A DNA stretch of 64,000 bases, taken from Tepidiformaceae bacterium (GTDB lineage: Bacteria > Chloroflexota > Dehalococcoidia > Tepidiformales > Tepidiformaceae). Below the pieces are notes generated by a model. The model had not been told where the DNA came from and made no database searches. It saw only the letters and a program-made list of their open reading frames with translations. Below are positions 39,083 to 60,149 of this stretch, one piece after another. Location of the stretch: positions 2,525,153-2,589,152 of the forward strand of contig OZ252025.1 in NCBI GenBank assembly GCA_965247675.1, read 5' to 3'. The stretch's first letter is position 1, and every line of letters starts with the position of its first letter. The position numbers and the translations under genes were made by a program.

Positions 39083-39108
39083 GGGGCTTGCCCGATAGGG
39101 CGAATATT

Positions 39109-39154
39109 CCCCGTCGTTCTCCACCTCGGTGGAAAACTGGCGGGGGTTCTCTTG
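39109..39154 (+). repeat. Intergenic repeat R2 (~46 bp) in the putative 5' leader of the NYN gene
   Basis: CCCCGTCGTTCTCCACCTCGGTGGAAAACTGGCGGGGGTTCTCTTG. Hairpin TCCAC-CTCG-GTGGA. It ends 5 nt before ATG 39160. Confidence 0.6.
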
Positions 39155-39159
39155 TCACC

Positions 39160-39795
39160 ATGACCAACCGCATCGCCGTTTACATCGATGCCCAGAACTT
39201 TTATCAGGGCGCCCGGGCGCGCTTCTTTGCGCCAGGCGCTCCTCGACGCAGGGGGCAGATAACCCCGCTGGAGCTCGGCAGGCTTCTCTGTACCCGCCGC
39301 AGGAATCTTGTAGAGCGCACGCTTGAGCAGGTGCGCATCTACACCGGGCGCCCAGACCCGCTCAGGGACCCGAGGACTTACGCCGCCCACATGCGCCAGT
39401 GCCACACCTGGGAGCGTTCGGGCGCCGTCGTCATCACCCGGCCCCTCAGGTACCCGCGCGATTGGCCCCGGGCCCGCGCCCAGGAGAAGGGCATCGACGT
39501 GCAGCTCGCCATCGACTTCGTCGCCGGCGCCATCGACGACGCCTACGACACCGGCATCATCTGTTCGACCGACACCGACCTGCTCCCGGCGCTGGAGTTC
39601 GTCGCAACCCGCTACGGCCGCGAGCGCGCCGAGACCGCCGCCTGGCTCGCGGGCGGCAAGGGCAGCGAACTCCGCCTCAGGCGCCCTTCGACCTGGCGCC
39701 ACCGCCTGAGCTTCCCGACACTGAGGCCGTCCGCGACCCAACCGACGACGCGCGATAGCAGGGCGCTCTCCTGTACGCTGACGCGCACTCCATGA
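39160..39795 (+). CDS. NYN-domain (PIN-like, LabA/DUF88-type) putative ribonuclease
   Basis: MTNRIAVYIDAQNFYQGAR... and EKGIDVQLAIDFVAGAIDDAYDTGIICSTDTDLLPALEFV are the NYN acidic motifs. The stop overlaps the permease ATG (ATGA). TTG 39088 is an alternative start. The C-terminal ~30 aa may be frameshifted. Confidence 0.7.
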   Translation: MTNRIAVYIDAQNFYQGARARFFAPGAPRRRGQITPLELGRLLCTRRRNLVERTLEQVRIYTGRPDPLRDPRTYAAHMRQCHTWERSGAVVITRPLRYPRDWPRARAQEKGIDVQLAIDFVAGAIDDAYDTGIICSTDTDLLPALEFVATRYGRERAETAAWLAGGKGSELRLRRPSTWRHRLSFPTLRPSATQPTTRDSRALSCTLTRTP

Positions 39796-43162: not shown

Positions 43163-44080
43163 ATGACTACCTTTCTCGACACCGAGACCGAGGCGCCTCC
43201 CTACATCCTCTGCGAGGACCTCTTCAAGATTCACAAGAGCGAGGACCTCGAGGTCGTCGCCCTGCGCGGCCTCGACCTGAAGGTCCGCGGGGGCGAGCTG
43301 ATGGCCATCGTCGGCGCCTCCGGCTCGGGCAAGAGCACCCTGCTCAACATCCTCGCCGGGCTCGACCAGCCCAGCGCCGGGCGCGCCTTCGTGGGCGGAC
43401 GCGACCTGCTCACCCTGACCGAGCCCGAGATGGTGCGTTACCGCCGCAGCTCCGTCGGCTTCATCTGGCAGCAGACCGGCCGCAACCTCATCCCCTACCT
43501 GACCGCCACCCAGAACGTCGAGCTGCCCCTCATGCTCGATGGCGTCGAGTCGCGCGCCGCCCGCGCGCGCGCCAACGAGCTCCTCGAGGCGGTCAGCCTG
43601 GGCCACCGCCACGACCACCACCCCGAGCAGCTCTCGGGCGGCGAGCAGCAGCGCGTCTCCATCGCCGTGGCGCTCGCCAACCGCCCGCCCCTGCTCCTGG
43701 CCGACGAGCCCACCGGCGAGCTCGATGCTATCGGCGCCGACAGCGTCTACGAGGTCCTCGGCGACCTGAACGCGCGCTACGGCGTCACCATCATCATCGT
43801 CACCCACGACCCCGAAATCGCCTCCCGCGTCGACCGCGTCGTCGCCATTCGCGACGGCCGCACGAGCATGGAGATCTTCCGCCGCGTGGAGAAGACGGGC
43901 GGCGTCACCCACGTCGTGCACGACGAGTACGTGCTCGTCGATTCCGCCGGCCGCCTGCAGGTGCCGCGCGAATTCCTCGACCGGCTCAGCATCCGCGAGC
44001 GGGCCAAGCTCTTCCTGGGCGATGGCCGCGTCGAGGTGCTGCCCGACACCGTTCGCCGCGTGCCCGTGGAGGAAAGCTGA
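43163..44080 (+). CDS. ABC transporter ATP-binding protein (MacB/LolD type) with a C-terminal AbrB/SpoVT-like extension
   Basis: Walker [10 protein letters not shown], signature LSGGEQQRV and Walker [13 protein letters not shown]. The tail [38 protein letters not shown] resembles a swapped-hairpin domain. Confidence 0.88.
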
Positions 44081-44958
44081 TGGCCGGCGCTTCGGTCGAG
44101 CTACGCAACGTCTCCCGCCGCTTCCAGCTCGGGTCGGAGGAGGTGTGGGCCGTTCGCGGCGTCACCCTCTCCATCGAGCCGGGCGAGTTCCTCGCCCTGA
44201 TCGGACGCTCCGGCTCCGGCAAGACGACCCTGCTCAACACCATCGCCGGGCTCGACCGCCCCACCGCCGGCGAGGTCGAGATCGACGGGGTGCGCGTCGA
44301 CACGATGCGCGAGTCCGAGCTGATTTCGCTGCGCCGCCAGAAGCTGGGCTTCATCTTCCAGTCGTTCGGATTGCTGCCCCTCCTCTCCGCCCAGGAAAAC
44401 GTGGAGCTACCCCTGCGCATCGCCGGCGTGCAGCGCGCACGCCCCGCCCGCGCCCGCGAGGTGCTGGAGCTGGTGGGGCTCGAACGGCGCGCCCACCACC
44501 GCCCCTACGAGCTCTCCGGAGGCGAGCAGCAGCGCGTCGCCATCGCCCGCGCGCTCGTCACCGAACCCACCCTCGTGCTCGCCGACGAGCCCACCGGCGA
44601 ACTCGACTCCGCCACCGCCACCGCCGTCTTCACCCTCATCCGCGACATCTGTCGCGAGCGCGGCGTCACCATCATCACCTGCACGCACGACCGCCTCGTG
44701 ATGGAGATGGCCAGCCGCGTCGAGGAACTGGAGGACGGCCGCCTCGCCACGGGCCACAAGGGCGATGTCTGGGGACGGGTGCAGTCGCGCGAACGCACCC
44801 CCTTCGAAGCGCCCGAGGGCGAGAGCCAGGAGAGCCAGTCGCTCCCCTCCCTCATCGGCGCCGACACCCGCAACTTCGGTCCCCGCGAGCCCGAGCCCAG
44901 GCCGGAGCCAGAGGAAGTCGAGGACATCCCCGAGGGCCGCTGGTCCCGGCCGGAGTAG
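44080..44958 (+). CDS. ABC transporter ATP-binding protein (MacB/LolD type) with an acidic disordered tail
   Basis: Walker A GRSGSGKTT, signature [15 protein letters not shown] and Walker [13 protein letters not shown]. The start overlaps the upstream stop (TGATG). Confidence 0.9.
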   Translation: MAGASVELRNVSRRFQLGSEEVWAVRGVTLSIEPGEFLALIGRSGSGKTTLLNTIAGLDRPTAGEVEIDGVRVDTMRESELISLRRQKLGFIFQSFGLLPLLSAQENVELPLRIAGVQRARPARAREVLELVGLERRAHHRPYELSGGEQQRVAIARALVTEPTLVLADEPTGELDSATATAVFTLIRDICRERGVTIITCTHDRLVMEMASRVEELEDGRLATGHKGDVWGRVQSRERTPFEAPEGESQESQSLPSLIGADTRNFGPREPEPRPEPEEVEDIPEGRWSRPE

Positions 44959-44992
44959 GGGACTCGCTGGCACCGCATACGGTGTCAGCGCC

Positions 44993-45367
44993 ATGCAAAC
45001 CGTTGACTACCTGGAGCTCCCATACCACCGCATCATCCAGCCGGGTGAGGGCGGCTACTGGTCCGCCCACGTGCTGGAGCTCGACGGCGTGTTCAGCGAG
45101 GGTGGGAGCGCTGCCGAAGCGGCCGAGAACCTGAACCTCGCGATGGGCCTCTGGATCGACCACGAGCTCGCAGAGGGCCACCCCATCCCCCAGCCCTGGG
45201 GTGCCGACCGCTCCGGCGACATCCGCCTGCGCCTGCCTCGATCGCTGCACGCCAATGCAGCCCTGCGGGCCAAGATCGAAGGGGTCTCACTCAACTACCT
45301 GATCGCTACTGCCCTCACGGCCTATCTCTCCCAACCAGTGGCGGCAGGCGAAGCCGCCAACCGATAG
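44993..45367 (+). CDS. hicB: HicB-family antitoxin (HicB N-domain + RHH-like C-terminus), no HicA adjacent
   Basis: YHRIIQPGEGGYWSAHVLELDGVFSEGGSAAEAAENLNLAMGLWIDHELAEGHPIPQP followed by RLRLPRSLHANAALRAKIEGVSLNYLIATAL. ATG lies 9 nt after TACGGT. Confidence 0.8.
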   Translation: MQTVDYLELPYHRIIQPGEGGYWSAHVLELDGVFSEGGSAAEAAENLNLAMGLWIDHELAEGHPIPQPWGADRSGDIRLRLPRSLHANAALRAKIEGVSLNYLIATALTAYLSQPVAAGEAANR

Positions 45368-45374
45368 CCTTCGC

Positions 45375-45707
45375 TCAGGGCGGGGGTAGCACAACCGCCA
45401 CCTGCCGACCGTCGTCGCCCAGTTCCCGCTTCAGGTAGAGGCACGCCGCCGCCAGCGAGTCCACCCGGGCAGTCCCGACGAGCTCCCACCCCTCTGCCCC
45501 AAGCGTCCCGAGGATCCACGTCGTGTGAACCTTCTCAGGGTCGAAGTGAATGGAGGTCGGGGTCTGGCTCGTGGCTCGGTCGGCGTGGAGCCCGAGGCTG
45601 GCCGCATCCTGCTCGTGGCTGAACAGAATCCAACCCCGCGCCGGCTTCTCGTCGGCGATGTACAGCAGCGCGTACTCCCACTTCACCGGCCGCATGCTAT
45701 CCGCCAC
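45375..45707 (-). CDS. Hypothetical small protein (DUF4177-like WEY...GAEGWELVG pattern)
   Basis: 110-aa ORF. GTG 45707 lies 8 nt after TAGAGT of motif copy 6. ATG 45695 is an alternative start. Confidence 0.45.
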   Translation of the reverse strand: MADSMRPVKWEYALLYIADEKPARGWILFSHEQDAASLGLHADRATSQTPTSIHFDPEKVHTTWILGTLGAEGWELVGTARVDSLAAACLYLKRELGDDGRQVAVVLPPP

Positions 45708-45745: not shown

Positions 45746-45759
45746 ACCCGCTCAACCCC

Positions 45760-45893
45760 GCATCGCGAGCGCGCAGCAGTCGAGCGCAGACCTTAAAGCC
45801 CACCGCTCTCCTCCCCCCTCAGGCACGCATCGCGAGCGCGCAGCAGTCGCGCGCGGAGAACCTCGCGCGGCGCTCTCCTCCGGTACACTCTCC
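45760..45893 (+). repeat. Two tandem ~67-bp units, each containing the GCGAGCGCGCAGCAGNCGNGCGC motif also amplified at 23923-24300
   Basis: GCATCGCGAGCGCGCAGCAGTCG starts at 45760 and again at 45827. The second unit continues ..GCGCGGAGAAC, matching the 36-bp SDR repeat unit. It ends at the TACACT -10 (45884-45889). Confidence 0.75.
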
Positions 45894-45895
45894 CC

Positions 45896-46321
45896 ATGCC
45901 CGTTTTCCCTTCCACCGAGTGGTTCCAGGAGGCGGCCGACCGCCTCAACGCCTCCGACAGCTTCGACCGCCTCGGAAACTGCGACGCCGCCGTCGGCGTG
46001 CGCGTGGGCGACCGCTGCTTCGCCATCACCTTCGACGCGTTCGCTATCACCGACGTCGCCGAGGTGCCCTGCGACGCCCCGGGGGATCTCGACTTCACGC
46101 TGCTGCAGACGCCGGAGGCCTGGCGCGCGATGCTCGAGAACATCAAGGAGAACGGTCAGGCGGACGCACTCTTCACCCTCAACTCGCTCGACCTCTCGAC
46201 CTCCGACGGCCTCGCCACGGGCGAGGACTACCACCGCCGCGACCTCCTCTACCGCTACAACCAGACCTTCCAGGAATACTTCGACATATCCGCGGAGATG
46301 GACACGACCTTCGCGCCATGA
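45896..46321 (+). CDS. SCP2 (sterol-carrier-like) domain protein
   Basis: MPVFPSTEWFQEAADRLNAS... is the typical N-terminus of actinobacterial SCP2-domain proteins. ATG lies 6 nt after TACACT. The stop overlaps the next ATG (ATGA). Confidence 0.6.
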   Translation: MPVFPSTEWFQEAADRLNASDSFDRLGNCDAAVGVRVGDRCFAITFDAFAITDVAEVPCDAPGDLDFTLLQTPEAWRAMLENIKENGQADALFTLNSLDLSTSDGLATGEDYHRRDLLYRYNQTFQEYFDISAEMDTTFAP

Positions 46322-47634
46322 CCGCAACACCGCCCTTCCTCACGCGTGTTCGCATCAAGAACTACAAGAGCATCGCGGCATGCGATGTGAAGCTGGGGAA
46401 CCTGGCCTTTTTGGTCGGCCCCAACGGCTCCGGTAAGAGCAACTTCCTCGACGCCCTCCGCTTCGTAGCCGACGCGCTTGACGACTCGCCCAGCCCGATC
46501 GAGCCGGATCAGAATGTCGTGCACATCACGCCCGGGAAGGTTCCAGACACACCTCTGGGCCGCGCGCTCGAAGTCCGTGGAGGCATCCGCCTAGTTCACC
46601 AGCAGATGGGCCCACTCGGATTCTCCTTCGGGATCCGGCTTGACTTCCACACTCGGGACGGCCGGCGCGGCCACTACAGCCTGCAGATTGGCACGAACGA
46701 AGCGGCTCAGGTGAGGCAAGACGAGCCACAATTCACTGTCGAGCGAGAGGAATGCGACCTTGGCGGCGGTGCGTCCTTTTCCATCGACAAATCCACTGTT
46801 GATGGATTTCCGCCGCCCCCGTTCCCTCCCGACAAGTCGCTACCCTGCGTCGACCGCTCCGATCTCTATCTGCGAAGACTGGCCCTCGATCACGACAGCC
46901 CACCGACACTGTTGCCCTTCCGGGACGCTTACAGCGCCCTGGTTCGTATGCGTTCCTACAGCCCCAGGCCCGATTCGATGCGCAAGCCCCTAAAGCCAGA
47001 CGAGAAGGGGCTTTTGCAGCACGACGGCGAGAACATTTGGGCCGTGCTCCAGAACCTGCAGGCGGTCAGTCCAGACACGTTCAGCCAAATCGAGGATTAT
47101 CTGGAGCTTGTCGTCCCGGGTCTGTCACTTGAGCCGTTTCTCCTCAGCCCTACCGACGCCGCCTACGCGGAGTTTCACGAGGATGTCCCTGGCCGGACCT
47201 ATCCCAGAAAGCTCCCTGCGAGGTCGATGTCGGACGGCACCCTACGAGCCGTCGGAGCACTCACTGCCCTGTTTCAGGAGGACGAAGCCGGGCCGCCAAC
47301 ACTTGTGGCGATCGAGGAGCCTGAGACGGCCCTTCACCCTGCAGCCGTGGGTGTCCTTCTCGGGGCCATGCGCTCCGTCAGCGACCACACCCAGGTGCTT
47401 GTCACGACGCACTCGCCAGAGCTTCTTCACTCCGATGACGTGCGGACGGACGAACTGCTCGCCGTATCGGCAGAGACCGGCGTGACCGTGATCGGCGGCA
47501 TTGACGTAGGCTCCCGCGATATCCTGGCGGACCGGCTGTTCTCGCCTGGAGAGCTCTTGCGCCTCGACCAGCTCGAGCCGGACAGCGCCGCTCCTCCGGC
47601 TGCCTGCGACGAAAGCGACCTTTTCGAACTCTAG
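46318..47634 (+). CDS. AAA_15/AAA_21-type (ABC/SMC-like) ATPase
   Basis: In frame within ORF 45550..47634. RIKNYKSI...LVGPNGSGKSNFLDALRF (Walker A), MSDGTLRAVG, and LVAIEEPETALHP...VTTHSPELL (Walker B / D- and H-loops). Confidence 0.85.
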   Translation: MTATPPFLTRVRIKNYKSIAACDVKLGNLAFLVGPNGSGKSNFLDALRFVADALDDSPSPIEPDQNVVHITPGKVPDTPLGRALEVRGGIRLVHQQMGPLGFSFGIRLDFHTRDGRRGHYSLQIGTNEAAQVRQDEPQFTVEREECDLGGGASFSIDKSTVDGFPPPPFPPDKSLPCVDRSDLYLRRLALDHDSPPTLLPFRDAYSALVRMRSYSPRPDSMRKPLKPDEKGLLQHDGENIWAVLQNLQAVSPDTFSQIEDYLELVVPGLSLEPFLLSPTDAAYAEFHEDVPGRTYPRKLPARSMSDGTLRAVGALTALFQEDEAGPPTLVAIEEPETALHPAAVGVLLGAMRSVSDHTQVLVTTHSPELLHSDDVRTDELLAVSAETGVTVIGGIDVGSRDILADRLFSPGELLRLDQLEPDSAAPPAACDESDLFEL

Positions 47635-48221
47635 ATGCGGCAGATCGTGCCAATCGTCGAGGGTCACGGTGAGCTGCGCGCAATTCCCATCCTTGTCCGC
47701 CGCGTCCTGGAGGCACAGGGCATCCTCACCAGTGTCCAGGTTTCAAGGCCATCCGCGAGCGCAGGGGCACTCTGCTGAAACAGGGCGGTGTCGAACGCCT
47801 CGCGCAGGCTGCCCGACGGAAGGCAAGGAGCGAGGCACGGGTTCTCGTTGTCCTTGACGCAGACGACGACTGTGCCGCGACCTTAGGGCCGCAACTCCAA
47901 GGGCGGCTGGAACGGGAACTCGGAGACAATGCGGGGGCCGCAGTGCTGCCGGTACGCGAGTACGAGAGCTGGCTGATCGGCGACGCACCCTCGCTCAGCC
48001 GGGATGGAGCCTTCCGAGACAACATCAGGCCGCAGGGGAACCCCGAGTCCGTCCTTGACGCCAAGCGATGGCTCAACGACCGGCGTACGGCCAAACATCG
48101 CTATGACCCTGTCAAGGACCAGGCCCGCCTCACCGAACTCGTAGACCTCGAAATTGTCCGCCAGCGGTGCCCATCCTTCGACAAGTTCTGGCGCGAGGTC
48201 GAGCGACTCGCGACTTCCTAG
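47635..48221 (+). pseudogene. DUF4276-family protein, split by a single frameshift
   Basis: ATG 47635 gives MRQIVPIVEGHGELRAIPILVRRVLEAQGILTSVQ, then stops at 47776. The family-like sequence continues without stops in another frame from about 47736: FKAIRERRGTLLKQGGVERL...VLVVLDADDDC...REYESWLIGD...CPSFDKFWREVERL. Confidence 0.7.
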
Positions 48222-48739
48222 CGCCTCGCTCGACGGTGCCAGCGACGACCGCGCCCTGACCCGCCGTGCCTCGCCGGTGCGGGCGTGGGGGCGAGGGTGG
48301 CGGCCCCCTTCTCGATGATCGGGTGCAGCACCGTCATCGCGCGGGCGACCTCGCCCGCCACCTCGTTCGCAAGCTCGACCGTGAGGCGCTCGAAGGGGAA
48401 GGGGCGGTGCAGCCGCCGCCAGGTCGAGGTCCACTCCTCCAGCTCCCAGGAGGGGCCAAGCTCCCCGAGAACGTCAGCGGCGTTCGCGGCCAACAGCTCC
48501 ACCCAGGCGTCGTTCGCCTCGACCGCGCCCTCGAAGTGCAGCCCCGCCTCCACCACGCCCCGCCCCATCTGCGGCTGCAGCTCGAAGTGCACGTGCTCGT
48601 CGCCGAAGTGCAGCTGCAGCATCGTCCAGCGCACACGGTGCTCGGGCGGGGGGATGGCGGGCGGCAGCTGCGTCAGGATCTGGTCCTCGCAGAAGAACAC
48701 GAACTCGCGCGCCTTGAGGGAACCGTCCGGTTTCGGCAT
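48218..48739 (-). CDS. Hypothetical protein
   Basis: GC3-rich ORF (track 48218..48748). ATG 48739 lies 8 nt after TACAGT (reverse complement of 48748-48753). No family recognised. Confidence 0.55.
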   Translation of the reverse strand: MPKPDGSLKAREFVFFCEDQILTQLPPAIPPPEHRVRWTMLQLHFGDEHVHFELQPQMGRGVVEAGLHFEGAVEANDAWVELLAANAADVLGELGPSWELEEWTSTWRRLHRPFPFERLTVELANEVAGEVARAMTVLHPIIEKGAATLAPTPAPARHGGSGRGRRWHRRARR

Positions 48740-48791
48740 CGTCCCCAACTGTAGCGAACCCCGTCGCCATGGGGACTACACTTCCGTACAG

Positions 48792-59034: not shown

Positions 59035-59820
59035 ATGTCCGAGACCGTGCGCTACGAGACCGACGGCGCCATTGGCGTCATCACCCTGAACCGGCCCGAC
59101 GCCCTCAACGCCATGAGCGGTGAGCTGCTCGACGCCCTCGTCGCGCGCGGCCACGAAGCGGCCGGCGACGAGGCGGTGCGCTGCGTGGTGGTGACGGGCG
59201 CGGGGCGCGCCTTCTGCTCTGGGGGCGACCTCAGGGGCATCGGCACGGGCGATGAGCTCGACCCGCTCGCGAGCACCGCCCAGCTGCGGCGCTTCGAGGA
59301 GATCTCGCGGCTGCTGGCGGAGATGCCCAAGCCCACCATCGCGGCCGTGAACGGCGCCGCCGCGGGCGCCGGCTTCTCCCTCGCGCTGGCCGCCGATATC
59401 CGCCTCGCGGGTGCAGGGGCGCGCTTCGTCACCGCTTTCGGTCGCGTCGGCCTCACGGGAGACTTCGGCGGCAGCTGGCAGCTCGAACGGATCGTGGGGG
59501 TCGCCAAAGCCAAGGAGCTCTACCTGCTCGGCCCGCAGATCGACGCCGCCACGGCGCTCCGCCTGGGCATCGTCAACCGCATCGTGCCCGACGGCGCCCT
59601 GCGCGACGAAGCGATGGCCCTCGCCGGCAAGCTCGCCGCCGGCCCCACCGCCGCCTTCGGGCGCATGAAGCGCAACTTCGCCTACGGCGCCACCCACACC
59701 TTCTCAGAGACCCTCACCTTCGAGGCGGGCAACATGATCGCGGCCTCGAAGAGCGAGGACTTCAAGAACGCAGCCGCCGCCTTCCTCGAGCGCCGCGAGC
59801 CGGAGTTCAAGGGCCGCTAG
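59035..59820 (+). CDS. Enoyl-CoA hydratase/isomerase (crotonase) family protein
   Basis: GVITLNRPDALNAM and VVVTGAGRAFCSGGDL. GAAGGAGGG SD before ATG 59035. TAGAAT -10-like hexamer at 59001-59006. Confidence 0.88.
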   Translation: MSETVRYETDGAIGVITLNRPDALNAMSGELLDALVARGHEAAGDEAVRCVVVTGAGRAFCSGGDLRGIGTGDELDPLASTAQLRRFEEISRLLAEMPKPTIAAVNGAAAGAGFSLALAADIRLAGAGARFVTAFGRVGLTGDFGGSWQLERIVGVAKAKELYLLGPQIDAATALRLGIVNRIVPDGALRDEAMALAGKLAAGPTAAFGRMKRNFAYGATHTFSETLTFEAGNMIAASKSEDFKNAAAAFLERREPEFKGR

Positions 59821-60149
59821 GGGCGCAACCTGGCGGCCCTGGCGACGAGTTCGTCGGCAAGGTCCTCCAGGGATGCGGCGAGGTCGTGCACGAGCTGGTC
59901 GGCGCGCGCTGTCATGACGCGCCTCTCCCGTGGGGCGCCTGCAGAGATCGCTTCCAGCCTGACGGAGTGGACACGAAGCCAGCGCGCTACCGTGCGCCAC
60001 TTCATCTGCGTGGCTGCAAGCTCCCTGGCGAACTCCACTATCTCCTCGTTCGAGGCGGCAAGGATTCGGCCGTTCAGGGCCAGGAACAGGAATGTCGTCG
60101 CCAGACCCATGCGCTTGTTGCCGTCGACGTACGGGTGGTTCTTGACCAT
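59817..60149 (-). CDS. doc: Doc-family (Fic-fold) toxin; the conserved region extends upstream of the annotated ATG
   Basis: Fic/Doc motif HPYVDGNKRMG. The same frame is stop-free back to about 60359 and encodes Doc-like LSVEHIGQRLALRFFANYGSALPSYRANLARPEALESALGLTRQPYYRDVFEKAGALLRS, but it contains no ATG, GTG or TTG. Confidence 0.65.
   Translation of the reverse strand: MVKNHPYVDGNKRMGLATTFLFLALNGRILAASNEEIVEFARELAATQMKWRTVARWLRVHSVRLEAISAGAPRERRVMTARADQLVHDLAASLEDLADELVARAARLRP

Follow-up and report, generated by a model that had tools for sequence, protein, structure and literature searches.

Genes and features of the locus

The window (the whole stretch of DNA that was analysed, 64,000 nt from a Tepidiformaceae bacterium) contains three tightly joined genes on the forward strand, followed by a convergent gene. 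The three comprise gene 1, whose product has a predicted SCP2-like fold; a gene for an ABC-type ATPase; and a DUF4276 gene whose reading frame is broken. The features of the locus, in coordinates of the window, are:

45884..45889, + strand: -10-like hexamer TACACT, 6 nt before the ATG of gene 1 (45896)
45896..46321, + strand: gene 1, 141-aa conserved core protein, host flank of the insertion (from homologues, GC3 and predicted fold)
46315..48216, no strand assigned: 1.9-kb segment missing from 'empty' relatives (blastn breakpoints against L006 at 46314 and 48217)
46318..47634, + strand: HEC-01A, ABC-type (AAA_15/AAA_21) ATPase, 438 aa, intact (PADLOC, Pfam, motifs)
46417-46440, in the ATPase gene: Walker A GPNGSGKS, aa 34-41
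47230-47241, in the ATPase gene: signature-like motif SDGT, aa 305-308
47302-47325, in the ATPase gene: Walker B LVAIEEPE, with the catalytic Glu, aa 329-336
47404-47415, in the ATPase gene: H-loop TTHS, aa 363-366
47635..47778, + strand: 5′ part of the DUF4276/HEC-01B gene (36 native codons, 11 out-of-frame codons, premature stop)
47742..47743, + strand: site of the DUF4276 frameshift, one C missing relative to L001 and L009
47743..48221, + strand: 3′ part of the DUF4276/HEC-01B gene in the -1 frame (HEC-01B profile PDLC04196, positions 53-192, 6.7e-40; Pfam DUF4276, 6.1e-15)
48218..48748, - strand: convergent conserved gene, 176 aa, right-hand host flank and usual neighbour of gene 1 (from gene order in genomes); no Pfam or PADLOC family matched it

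The ATPase and DUF4276 genes as a HEC-01 pair

All four motifs of an ABC-type ATPase were found in the ATPase, including the catalytic Glu after Walker B, and its N-terminus agrees with those of homologues. Profile searches agreed with the families named in the first-pass annotation: in Pfam, the ATPase matched AAA_21 (3.9e-30, profile positions 1-303 of 304) and AAA_15 (5.1e-21), and the DUF4276 protein, after repair of its frame, matched DUF4276 from end to end (6.1e-20). The best PADLOC profile for the ATPase was HEC-01A (PDLC04178, 1.9e-120, 400.6 bits; the best stretch spans profile positions 57-389 of 399), and the runner-up profiles were HEC-01A as well. The repaired DUF4276 protein matched HEC-01B (PDLC04196) at 1.5e-57 over positions 1-192 of 197. 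Both genes lie next to each other on one strand, with the stop codon of the first (TAG, 47632-47634) directly followed by the start of the second (ATG, 47635), and the same pairing was present in all 16 related loci examined. Judged by these matches, the two genes represent HEC-01, a candidate anti-phage system of two genes that has already been catalogued; in this copy the B gene is cut to 36 native residues. For the ATPase and DUF4276 genes, the defence-like architecture proposed earlier is borne out by these profiles and by relatives of the pair that lie amid defence genes.

HEC-01 (Hma-embedded candidate 01, an ABC ATPase plus TOPRIM pair) is included in PADLOC-DB v2 (Payne et al., bioRxiv 10.1101/2024.01.29.577857). 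Its biology is so far poorly characterised. The representative of Payne et al. gave no phage protection when tested (10.1101/2024.01.29.577857), and a HEC-01 from a cold seep gave E. coli B protection against one or more of T4, T5, and T7 (10.1101/2024.09.26.614923). DUF4276 is a member of the Toprim superfamily and a homologue of Mad4 (PMC12065111). Systems that join an AAA15/21 ATPase to a Toprim protein include PARIS, AbiL, and MADS3-4; in PARIS, a trigger causes AriA to release AriB (PMC11464382).

We compared the pair with its known relatives. (i) It shares with HEC-01 the two adjacent, co-oriented genes (AAA_15/21 ATPase and Toprim-like DUF4276), and the profiles are matched over nearly their full length; here, however, the pair is outside any Hma or defence operon, is squeezed in between two core genes that converge, would be expressed via the leaderless promoter of a host gene and stop-start coupling, and has a frameshifted effector gene. 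(ii) With PARIS it shares superfamilies and logic, an AAA15/21 ABC ATPase with a small Toprim effector, but the effector is DUF4276 instead of DUF4435, no AriB or DUF4435 match was obtained, and AriA profiles fit the ATPase far more weakly than HEC-01A (1e-30 versus 1.9e-120). (iii) In MADS, the DUF4276 homologue is Mad4 and the AAA15/21 ATPase is Mad3 (PMC12065111, PMC11464382), yet the ATPase scored 113.7 bits on NCBIfam MAD3, which has an equivalog cut-off of 420, and no methyltransferase or other mad genes adjoin the pair. A PADLOC mad3 match was rejected as evidence for MADS, as this model matches the ABC-transporter ATPases of the window just as well, at about 1e-30. (iv) OLD and Gabija GajA likewise combine an ABC ATPase with IEEPE in Walker B and a Toprim nuclease, although both are fused there and encoded by separate genes here, and by sequence they match in the P-loop region only.

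A frameshift in the DUF4276 gene had been noted before, and we confirmed it: the frame breaks after codon 36, and the rest follows in the -1 frame. Where the window reads GGTT-TCAAGG, L001 and L009 read GGTTCTCAAGG; loss of one C at 47742/47743 turns GGTTCTCAAGG into GGTTTCAAGG. With the C put back in silico, a 195-aa DUF4276 protein is obtained. The 5′ part contains the Toprim Glu in IVEGHGE and matches HEC-01B PDLC04196 at positions 1-40 (5.4e-10), and the 3′ part encodes the DxD motif (VLDADDD) and REYESW. In the DUF4276 alignment A3, residues E9, D75, D77, and E109-E111 do not vary; the Toprim residues E9 (IVEGHGE) and D75-x-D77 (VLDADDD), both encoded here, are invariant or nearly so in alignments of 9 and 32 sequences. 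The structure of an intact homologue of 86% identity was modelled with a pLDDT of 92.2. Its top Foldseek match in the PDB was the C-terminal Toprim region of OLD (6njv), a weak match (E 3.4e-3, probability 0.82, TM 0.33), with 6nk8 at rank five, and a profile search with the DUF4276 alignment against PDB sequences gave chance matches only. Since the 1-nt deletion truncates the putative nuclease before its DxD metal site, the HEC-01 module is most likely inactive in this copy as assembled.

The deletion at 47742/47743 may instead be an error of assembly or consensus, which would leave the organism itself with an unbroken, working module; this is a real possibility, though a somewhat doubtful one. 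The relatives come from long-read metagenome assemblies, judged by coverage tags in contig names, and breaks occur in the same genes there (a split ATPase in L096 at 2x coverage, and at least two shifts in L009); moreover, the catalytic residues downstream of the shift are all still encoded, and the repaired gene shows no sign of decay (dN/dS 0.18). An error is less readily reconciled with the absence of a long homopolymer at the deletion (TTCTC to TTTC), or with the neighbouring genes in about 20 kb, which match the lengths of their homologues (FtsX, 1120 aa; ABC, 305 and 292 aa; GroEL, 539 aa). Defence genes are, besides, often pseudogenised. Two metagenome DNA-pattern scans, an exact-protein look-up of the ATPase of the window, and a scan of viral contigs yielded no independent assembly of the same allele. 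Programmed frameshifting was rejected, given that relatives have a continuous ORF one base longer and that there is no slippery heptamer.

The neighbourhood had been described as rich in toxin-antitoxin genes. Its hicB gene at 44993 held up (HicB, 4.3e-08), but the 'Doc' gene at 59817 matched only 22 residues of the Fic/DOC profile. The claim of richness is weak. A defence island or toxin-antitoxin-rich neighbourhood was rejected after about 30 kb had been annotated; the neighbours in the window are housekeeping genes instead (GroEL/ES, Obg, a CLC channel, ABC transporters, and enoyl-CoA hydratase), and Rfam and tRNA scans found nothing close to the locus. These surroundings, the negative phage test of Payne et al., and matches of the ATPase to the N-termini of SMC_N and RecF would suit a pair that is not immune at all and serves in housekeeping or in the maintenance of a mobile element, for instance in DNA repair, with an SMC/RecF-like ATPase joined to a Toprim nuclease, or as an addiction module. 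We regard this as very unlikely: the SMC_N and RecF matches are limited to the P-loop region, one HEC-01 did protect against phage, relatives of the pair are found inside a type I R-M operon or beside type II R-M, McrBC-like, and SIR2 genes, and the locus displays the presence/absence polymorphism, mosaic alleles, and excess dS typical of immune loci (see below).

Gene 1 and its expression signals

Gene 1 is a core gene of Tepidiformaceae/Dehalococcoidia and not a component of the cassette, to which it would lend its promoter, its leaderless start, and the stop/start overlap. It has 240 homologues at 58-98% identity and 163 genome matches, a mean column identity of 74%, and a flank-like GC3 of 0.92, and it is under strong purifying selection. 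Every genome of the lineage carries it at some position; in the MAG of L095, for example, it lies on another contig (L025). As for the 'SCP2-like' label given to it earlier, the predicted fold supports it and sequence profiles do not. The AlphaFold model (pLDDT 90.7) gave SCP2 folds for 12 of the 12 top PDB matches in Foldseek (AF1534, UbiJ-SCP2, and human SCP2; probability 0.96-1.0, TM 0.41-0.65), and sequence searches returned no SCP2-family match in Pfam (E <= 1), NCBIfam, or PDB sequences, and no PADLOC match. The assignment thus appears to hold at the level of the fold only.

The tight arrangement of the three genes and the single leaderless-type promoter reported in the first-pass annotation were both recovered. 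The spacer between TACACT and the ATG of gene 1 is CTCCCC, and 31 related loci keep TA[C/G]ACT-N6-ATG despite variable flanking bases; no sigma-70 -35/-10 consensus site was found. TACACT is likely to be the promoter of a leaderless mRNA that carries gene 1, the ATPase gene, and the DUF4276 gene. The stop of gene 1 and the start of the ATPase gene overlap in ATGA (46318-46321), an overlap that recurs in 10 of the 11 loci with the pair after gene 1, and in each of the 11 copies of this HEC-01 clade found downstream of gene 1 in Tepidiformaceae, the pair sits right at the gene 1 stop codon. From this arrangement we infer that the pair is transcribed from the gene 1 promoter and translationally coupled.

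Part of this arrangement is also found where the cassette has been relocated. In L086, L095, and L089, the ATPase gene is preceded by a mini-ORF that keeps the -10 box, the spacer, and the start. It consists of the first 6 and the last 12 codons of gene 1 (18 codons), still overlapping the ATPase start, with codons 7-129 deleted. When L086 and L095 were compared with an in-silico deletion of gene 1, 59 of 87 ungapped positions matched; the maximum among shuffled sequences was 43, and none of 5000 reached 59. Relocated cassettes keep only the promoter and the end codons of gene 1, so it is the expression signals of gene 1, and not its protein-coding body, that appear to move along with the cassette.

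The pair follows gene 1 in 4 of 72 informative species genomes; in the other 68, no ATPase or DUF4276 gene lies within 8 kb of gene 1. Presence or absence of the pair shows no link with gene 1. In five contexts of the pair away from gene 1, no gene 1 homologue was present, and three of the five retain only a relic of 18-21 codons. Pairs lacking gene 1 occur in Iamia, where the pair lies inside a type I R-M operon, as well as in Cystobacter and elsewhere in Dehalococcoidia, and HEC-01 pairs in many other phyla likewise have no neighbour of the gene 1 type. The idea that gene 1, the ATPase gene, and the DUF4276 gene form one functional three-gene defence cassette, with the SCP2 protein as lipid or membrane sensor or targeting partner, could draw on the tight ATGA coupling with no separate ATPase promoter evident, on the invariable position of the 11 copies at the stop codon, on the predicted fold, which is real, and on the ubiquity of gene 1 in the lineage, which would allow action in trans; it is nevertheless largely refuted by these co-occurrence data. 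The strong purifying selection on gene 1, its host-like GC3, which the pair does not share, and the loss of codons 7-129 on relocation also speak against it, and we give it very little weight. Lack of conservation of the SCP2-like gene beside such pairs in other genomes had been named in the first-pass annotation as grounds for refutation, and this lack was observed.

A separate thought, which we consider a long shot, is that the HEC-01 pair in Tepidiformales is wired to the SCP2-fold gene beyond accident. HEC-01 synthesis would be locked to the transcription and leaderless translation of gene 1, a coupling that outlasts relocation in the form of the 18-codon relic, and the gene 1 protein might then function in trans, either as a guarded host factor or as co-sensor with the ATPase.

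The insertion site and its alleles

Where the site is empty, the stops of gene 1 and of the convergent core gene lie about 8-10 nt apart, and the pair fills exactly this gap. The empty site reads ...ttcgccTGAgccccgcCTAGcgcc... in the arrangement TGA-N7-CTAG, and the TAG stop of the DUF4276 gene (48219-48221) lies within the palindrome CTAG (48218-48221), which it has in common with the convergent gene. GC3 is 0.74 in the pair versus 0.92 in the flanks. The 72 informative species loci comprised 4 that are occupied, 37 with the convergent neighbour directly downstream (at most 400 nt), and 31 with other genes downstream. No terminal repeats, target-site duplication, or recombinase were found at the insertion. 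Transposition or site-specific integration was rejected as the route, for want of terminal inverted repeats, target duplication, and recombinase; homologous exchange via the conserved flanks and the cassette ends fits better.

Diverged alleles occupy this site in otherwise similar sequences. L001 and L002 have flanks that are 99-100% identical, share 34-71% identity over 46353-47969, and differ by 30-66% in the ATPase; the window and L002 are 99% identical only over 47970-48119, against a background of about 89%. ATPase alleles at the site are 50-79% identical to that of the window and interleave with alleles from other sites. The alleles at the gene 1 site are mosaic and polyphyletic. Most of the variation falls in the middle of the ATPase (aa 61-300). 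Relative to the flanks, allele dS is raised 2- to 3-fold, and dN/dS is about 0.2 (about 0.18-0.21 for the ATPase). Positive selection behind the divergence was rejected, the low dN/dS and raised dS pointing to old alleles and not to fast protein evolution.

Defence hotspots flanked by core genes hold variable immune cargo between conserved genes. The present site displays the same presence/absence polymorphism, with near-identical strains carrying diverged alleles. It differs in that HEC-01 was the only type of system in every occupied locus seen, and in that the cargo is fused to the stop codons of the flanks at both ends (ATGA and CTAG). It has largely been shown that the gap between gene 1 and the convergent gene is a lineage-wide, recombination-driven hotspot of HEC-01 alleles, from which cassettes are exported along with the leaderless promoter and coupling ORF that they have captured.

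Taken as a whole, the locus very probably represents a horizontally acquired HEC-01 module in the gap between two convergent core genes, living on the expression signals of gene 1 and with alleles exchanged at the hotspot. The module would lack both a promoter and a ribosome-binding site of its own. Transcription would come from the leaderless promoter of gene 1, and translation would proceed by stop-start coupling, first at ATGA and then at TAGATG. Diverged HEC-01 alleles would be swapped at the site by homologous recombination, and a cassette that moved elsewhere would retain the -10 box, start, and end codons of gene 1 as a mini-ORF. For the defence mechanism, PARIS is the likely model, in which a scaffold ATPase senses a phage protein and releases a nuclease. 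PARIS, OLD, and Gabija suggest by analogy that the ABC-type sensor ATPase may hold the nuclease inactive until a phage trigger is sensed; it would then release or activate the DUF4276 Toprim-family nuclease, which, once freed, would cut host or phage nucleic acid and cause abortive infection.

The tempting reading as a new three-gene defence system is thereby struck off, the pair being HEC-01 and the SCP2-fold gene a bystander. Intact alleles are found in L001, L002, L094, and L098; these are suggested as orthologues for cloning, and the upstream mini-ORF is worth keeping in expression constructs. At least 11 HEC-01 alleles form a natural series at one chromosomal site, with clear signs of cassette exchange. 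The locus is also a clear-cut case of a defence operon that would run on the leaderless promoter of a host gene and on stop-start coupling; on moving, the cassette appears to take these expression signals with it in the form of a mini-ORF.

Layout and assignment of the ATPase and DUF4276 genes

Every sequence feature described in the first-pass annotation (the TACACT hexamer, the ATGA overlap, the abutting ATG, and the broken third frame) was found in the window.

Features of the gene 1 locus in the window
45884-45889: −10-like hexamer TACACT, from sequence reading, followed by 6 nt (CTCCCC) and the ATG at 45896
45896-46321 (+): gene 1, 141 aa
46318-46321: ATGA overlap, opening the 438-aa ATPase ORF that closes at TAG 47632-47634
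47635: ATG of the DUF4276 gene, abutting TAG 47632-47634 with no gap
47635-47778: 5′ ORF of the DUF4276 gene, 47 codons; the remainder is in a different frame and ends at TAG 48219-48221
48218-48748 (−): convergent gene

The assignment of the ATPase was backed by the Pfam profiles AAA_21 (3.9e-30, whole profile) and AAA_15 (5.1e-21), and its Walker A, SDGT signature-like, IEEPE Walker B, and TTHS H-loop motifs are intact. In PADLOC-DB, it matched the HEC-01A model (PDLC04178) at 1.9e-120, with the AriA, Old, GajA, AbiLi, and mad3 profiles far below. With the NCBIfam MAD3 model, the score was 113.7 bits (cut-off 420). Since PADLOC mad3 (PDLC04135) also matches both ordinary ABC-transporter ATPases encoded in the window (43163-44958; 6e-32 and 1e-29), at a strength equal to that on the HEC-01 ATPase, the mad3 match carries no weight, and this model alone is not specific. 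The ATPase family has >7,700 members in many phyla.

The two DUF4276 fragments aligned to positions 1-40 and 53-192 of the HEC-01B model (PDLC04196). Alignment with the related loci L001 and L009 confirmed the frameshift noted earlier, one C being absent between 47742 and 47743. When the C was put back, the resulting 195-aa protein matched the full DUF4276 profile (6.1e-20) and HEC-01B (1.5e-57). The DUF4276 assignment holds and, by the PADLOC check, so does the reading of the two genes as a defence pair. The repaired protein has a conserved Glu (IVEGHGE) and a DxD (VLDADDD), which are invariant or nearly so among homologues. DUF4276 has been placed in the Toprim superfamily (10.1101/2024.01.29.577857; PMC12065111). 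For the AlphaFold model of an intact homologue (86% identical to that of the window; pLDDT 92.2), the closest PDB match, although weak, was the Toprim-containing C-terminal region of the OLD nuclease (6njv, E 3.4e-3, TM 0.33).

The DxD lies beyond the stop of the nuclease encoded in the window, which retains 36 native residues. The module is probably dead here, unless the single-base deletion is an assembly artefact and not a mutation; breaks in the same genes of related long-read assemblies favour an artefact, but the genes neighbouring the pair are intact. The pair of L009, a species-representative genome (L009:8423-10330), is interrupted by two or more frameshifts, which affect both the ATPase and the DUF4276 gene, and the ATPase is split on a contig of 2x coverage (L096:3723-5000). 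The cause of these interruptions is either repeated pseudogenisation or consensus errors of long reads.

Gene 1 and the insertion site of the pair

Gene 1 had no match in Pfam, NCBIfam, PADLOC, or PDB sequences, but the top dozen Foldseek matches of its predicted model (pLDDT 90.7) were all SCP2-fold proteins (probability about 1, TM 0.41-0.65); its earlier label "SCP2-like" therefore applies at fold level only. Its family (240 matches, 58-98% identity, mean column identity 74%) is essentially restricted to Tepidiformaceae and other Dehalococcoidia. We classified 80 gene 1 loci of species-representative genomes, of which 72 had at least 1.5 kb downstream. The ATPase-DUF4276 pair directly followed gene 1 in 4/72 loci (L009, L028, L030, and L064), the convergent 170-176-aa gene in 37, and other genes in 31; no ATPase or DUF4276 relatives were found within 8 kb at the remaining surveyed loci. 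The conserved convergent protein, a habitual neighbour of gene 1 across Tepidiformales, had no family match. The stops of the two genes lie about 8 nt apart, and they may form a functional pair.

At empty sites, which have gene 1 and the convergent gene without the pair, roughly 7-10 nt separate the stop codons (...TTCGCC TGA gccccgc CTAG...). The 1.9-kb pair occupies exactly this gap (blastn breakpoints against the related locus L006: 46314 and 48217). In the window, its ATG overlaps the TGA of gene 1, and its last TAG sits within a CTAG that also contains the stop of the convergent gene. By composition the pair is foreign: its GC3 is 0.74, whereas gene 1 and the flanks have 0.92. It was also found without gene 1: inside a type I restriction-modification operon in Iamia, alone in Cystobacter, and in further cases adjoining McrBC-like genes, type II restriction-modification genes, or SIR2 and relaxase genes. 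The proposed three-gene cassette with an SCP2 partner thus did not survive the comparison of gene neighbourhoods across genomes.

Nor is the neighbourhood rich in toxin-antitoxin genes, as had been suggested. The surroundings are housekeeping genes (FtsX/ABC transporters, CLC channel, GroEL/ES, Obg, enoyl-CoA hydratase, and DsbD) and not a defence island, the exceptions being an orphan HicB-like gene and, at a distance of 12 kb, a short ORF resembling Fic/Doc. The HicB-like gene (44993-45367) was upheld, with no hicA partner evident in the window; the "Doc" ORF (59817-60149, minus strand) matches the Fic/DOC profile over only 22 residues (1.5e-06), also partially matches PADLOC PDC-S23, and may be a fragment. 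A second variable spot (44948-45452), between an ABC-transporter gene and a 110-aa minus-strand ORF, contains the HicB-like gene, which is missing in L002 and has a 276-aa gene in its place in L001; in L096 a 47-aa ORF lies just 5′ of hicB. An NYN-domain gene (39088-39795, plus strand) 5′ of the FtsX/ABC operon, with a partial PADLOC HEC-09 match (2.9e-11, 50 residues), is probably resident, because it is syntenic in relatives (L002).

Promoter, coupling, and gene 1 relics

The arrangement TA[C/G]ACT-N6-ATG is kept in 31 close-clade loci. Distant gene 1 relatives (L032-L085, e.g. L050:7940-8000) carry a conserved GGTAGACT about 45-55 nt upstream of a GGAGG-led start, the GGAGG ribosome-binding site following a leader of about 40-50 nt behind the box. 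Together, these arrangements support reading the hexamer as a −10 element and the close-clade mRNA as leaderless. In that clade this box lies 6 nt from the ATG, suggesting a leadered-to-leaderless switch within one gene family. Upstream of the gene 1 promoter, the window has a tandem direct repeat (45747-45790 and 45814-45857; 67-nt spacing, 44 nt, 86% identical, core GCATCGCGAGCGCGCAGCAGTCG), of which relatives appear to carry one copy. Neither HEC-01 gene is preceded by a Shine-Dalgarno sequence or a gap, as read from the sequence.

Cassettes at other genomic sites (L086-L088, L095, and L089-L090) have GTACACT-ctccac-ATG and an 18-codon ORF just 5′ of the ATPase ATG. The L086 mini-ORF (MVLLPSDVSAHMETAFAP, then stop) corresponds to codons 1-6 of gene 1 joined to its last 12 codons, with the same ATGA overlap at its end. 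This relic of gene 1 (−10 box, 6-nt spacer, start, and mini-ORF of 18-21 codons) lies at L086:4930-5004, L095:4930-5004, and L089:4920-5004, and also occurs in L087, L088, and L090. Compared with an in-silico deletion of the window gene 1, L086 and L095 were identical at 59/87 ungapped positions (shuffles: mean 30, maximum 43), and no other segment of these loci scored as high. The L089 mini-ORF, with 21 codons, is more diverged (39/87 positions, equalled by 20/5000 shuffles). The mobile unit thus lacks the SCP2 body but retains promoter, start, and coupling, and the relocated cassettes are the strongest evidence that the pair depends on the expression signals of gene 1.

Allele exchange at the gene 1 site and proposed mode of action

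With metagenome contigs included, the pair follows gene 1 at 11 loci (the window, L001, L002, L009, L028, L030, L064, L094, L096, L097, and L098). Where measured, ATPases at this site share 50-79% identity with that of the window, and in a distance tree they interleave with ATPases of other genomic sites; the window ATPase is 70% identical to that of L086 (other site) but 50-56% to those of L002, L028, L030, and L064 (same site). L001 and L002, from one sample, have flanks of 99-100% identity; from about 35 nt inside the ATPase gene as far as the middle of DUF4276, their identity is only 34-71% (window 46353-48119, set against L001:6458-8220 and L002). Against a background of about 89%, the window reaches 99% identity with L002 solely over 47970-48119 (3′ half of DUF4276) and 93-95% identity with L001 over 47372-47819. 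Judging from these alignments, the alleles form a recombination mosaic. They also appear old, under purifying selection, and not decaying (dN/dS about 0.2 for ATPase and DUF4276 alike; dS 0.55-0.87 for the pair versus 0.24-0.39 for flanking genes). No terminal repeats, target duplication, or recombinase were found at the locus; the simplest route of exchange would be homologous recombination by way of the conserved flanks and the ends of the cassette.

HEC-01 membership, intact ATPase motifs, Toprim-type catalytic residues, and the operon layout were established here, and a mechanism can be proposed from PARIS, OLD, Gabija, and statements by Payne et al. (10.1101/2024.01.29.577857; PMC11464382). 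By analogy, sensing and scaffolding would fall to the ABC ATPase, with the trigger set by its variable middle part. The ATPase would then release or switch on the Toprim nuclease, and this enzyme would damage nucleic acid and abort the infection. Experimental support for HEC-01 as a defence system is thin and mixed: the HEC-01 tested by Payne et al. gave no protection (10.1101/2024.01.29.577857), and another protected against one or more of T4, T5, and T7 (10.1101/2024.09.26.614923). The pair in the window is a newly found member of this already known candidate system, in a probably inactivated copy; what is new, on a small scale, is the allele hotspot at a single site, together with the captured, putatively leaderless promoter and its mini-ORF.
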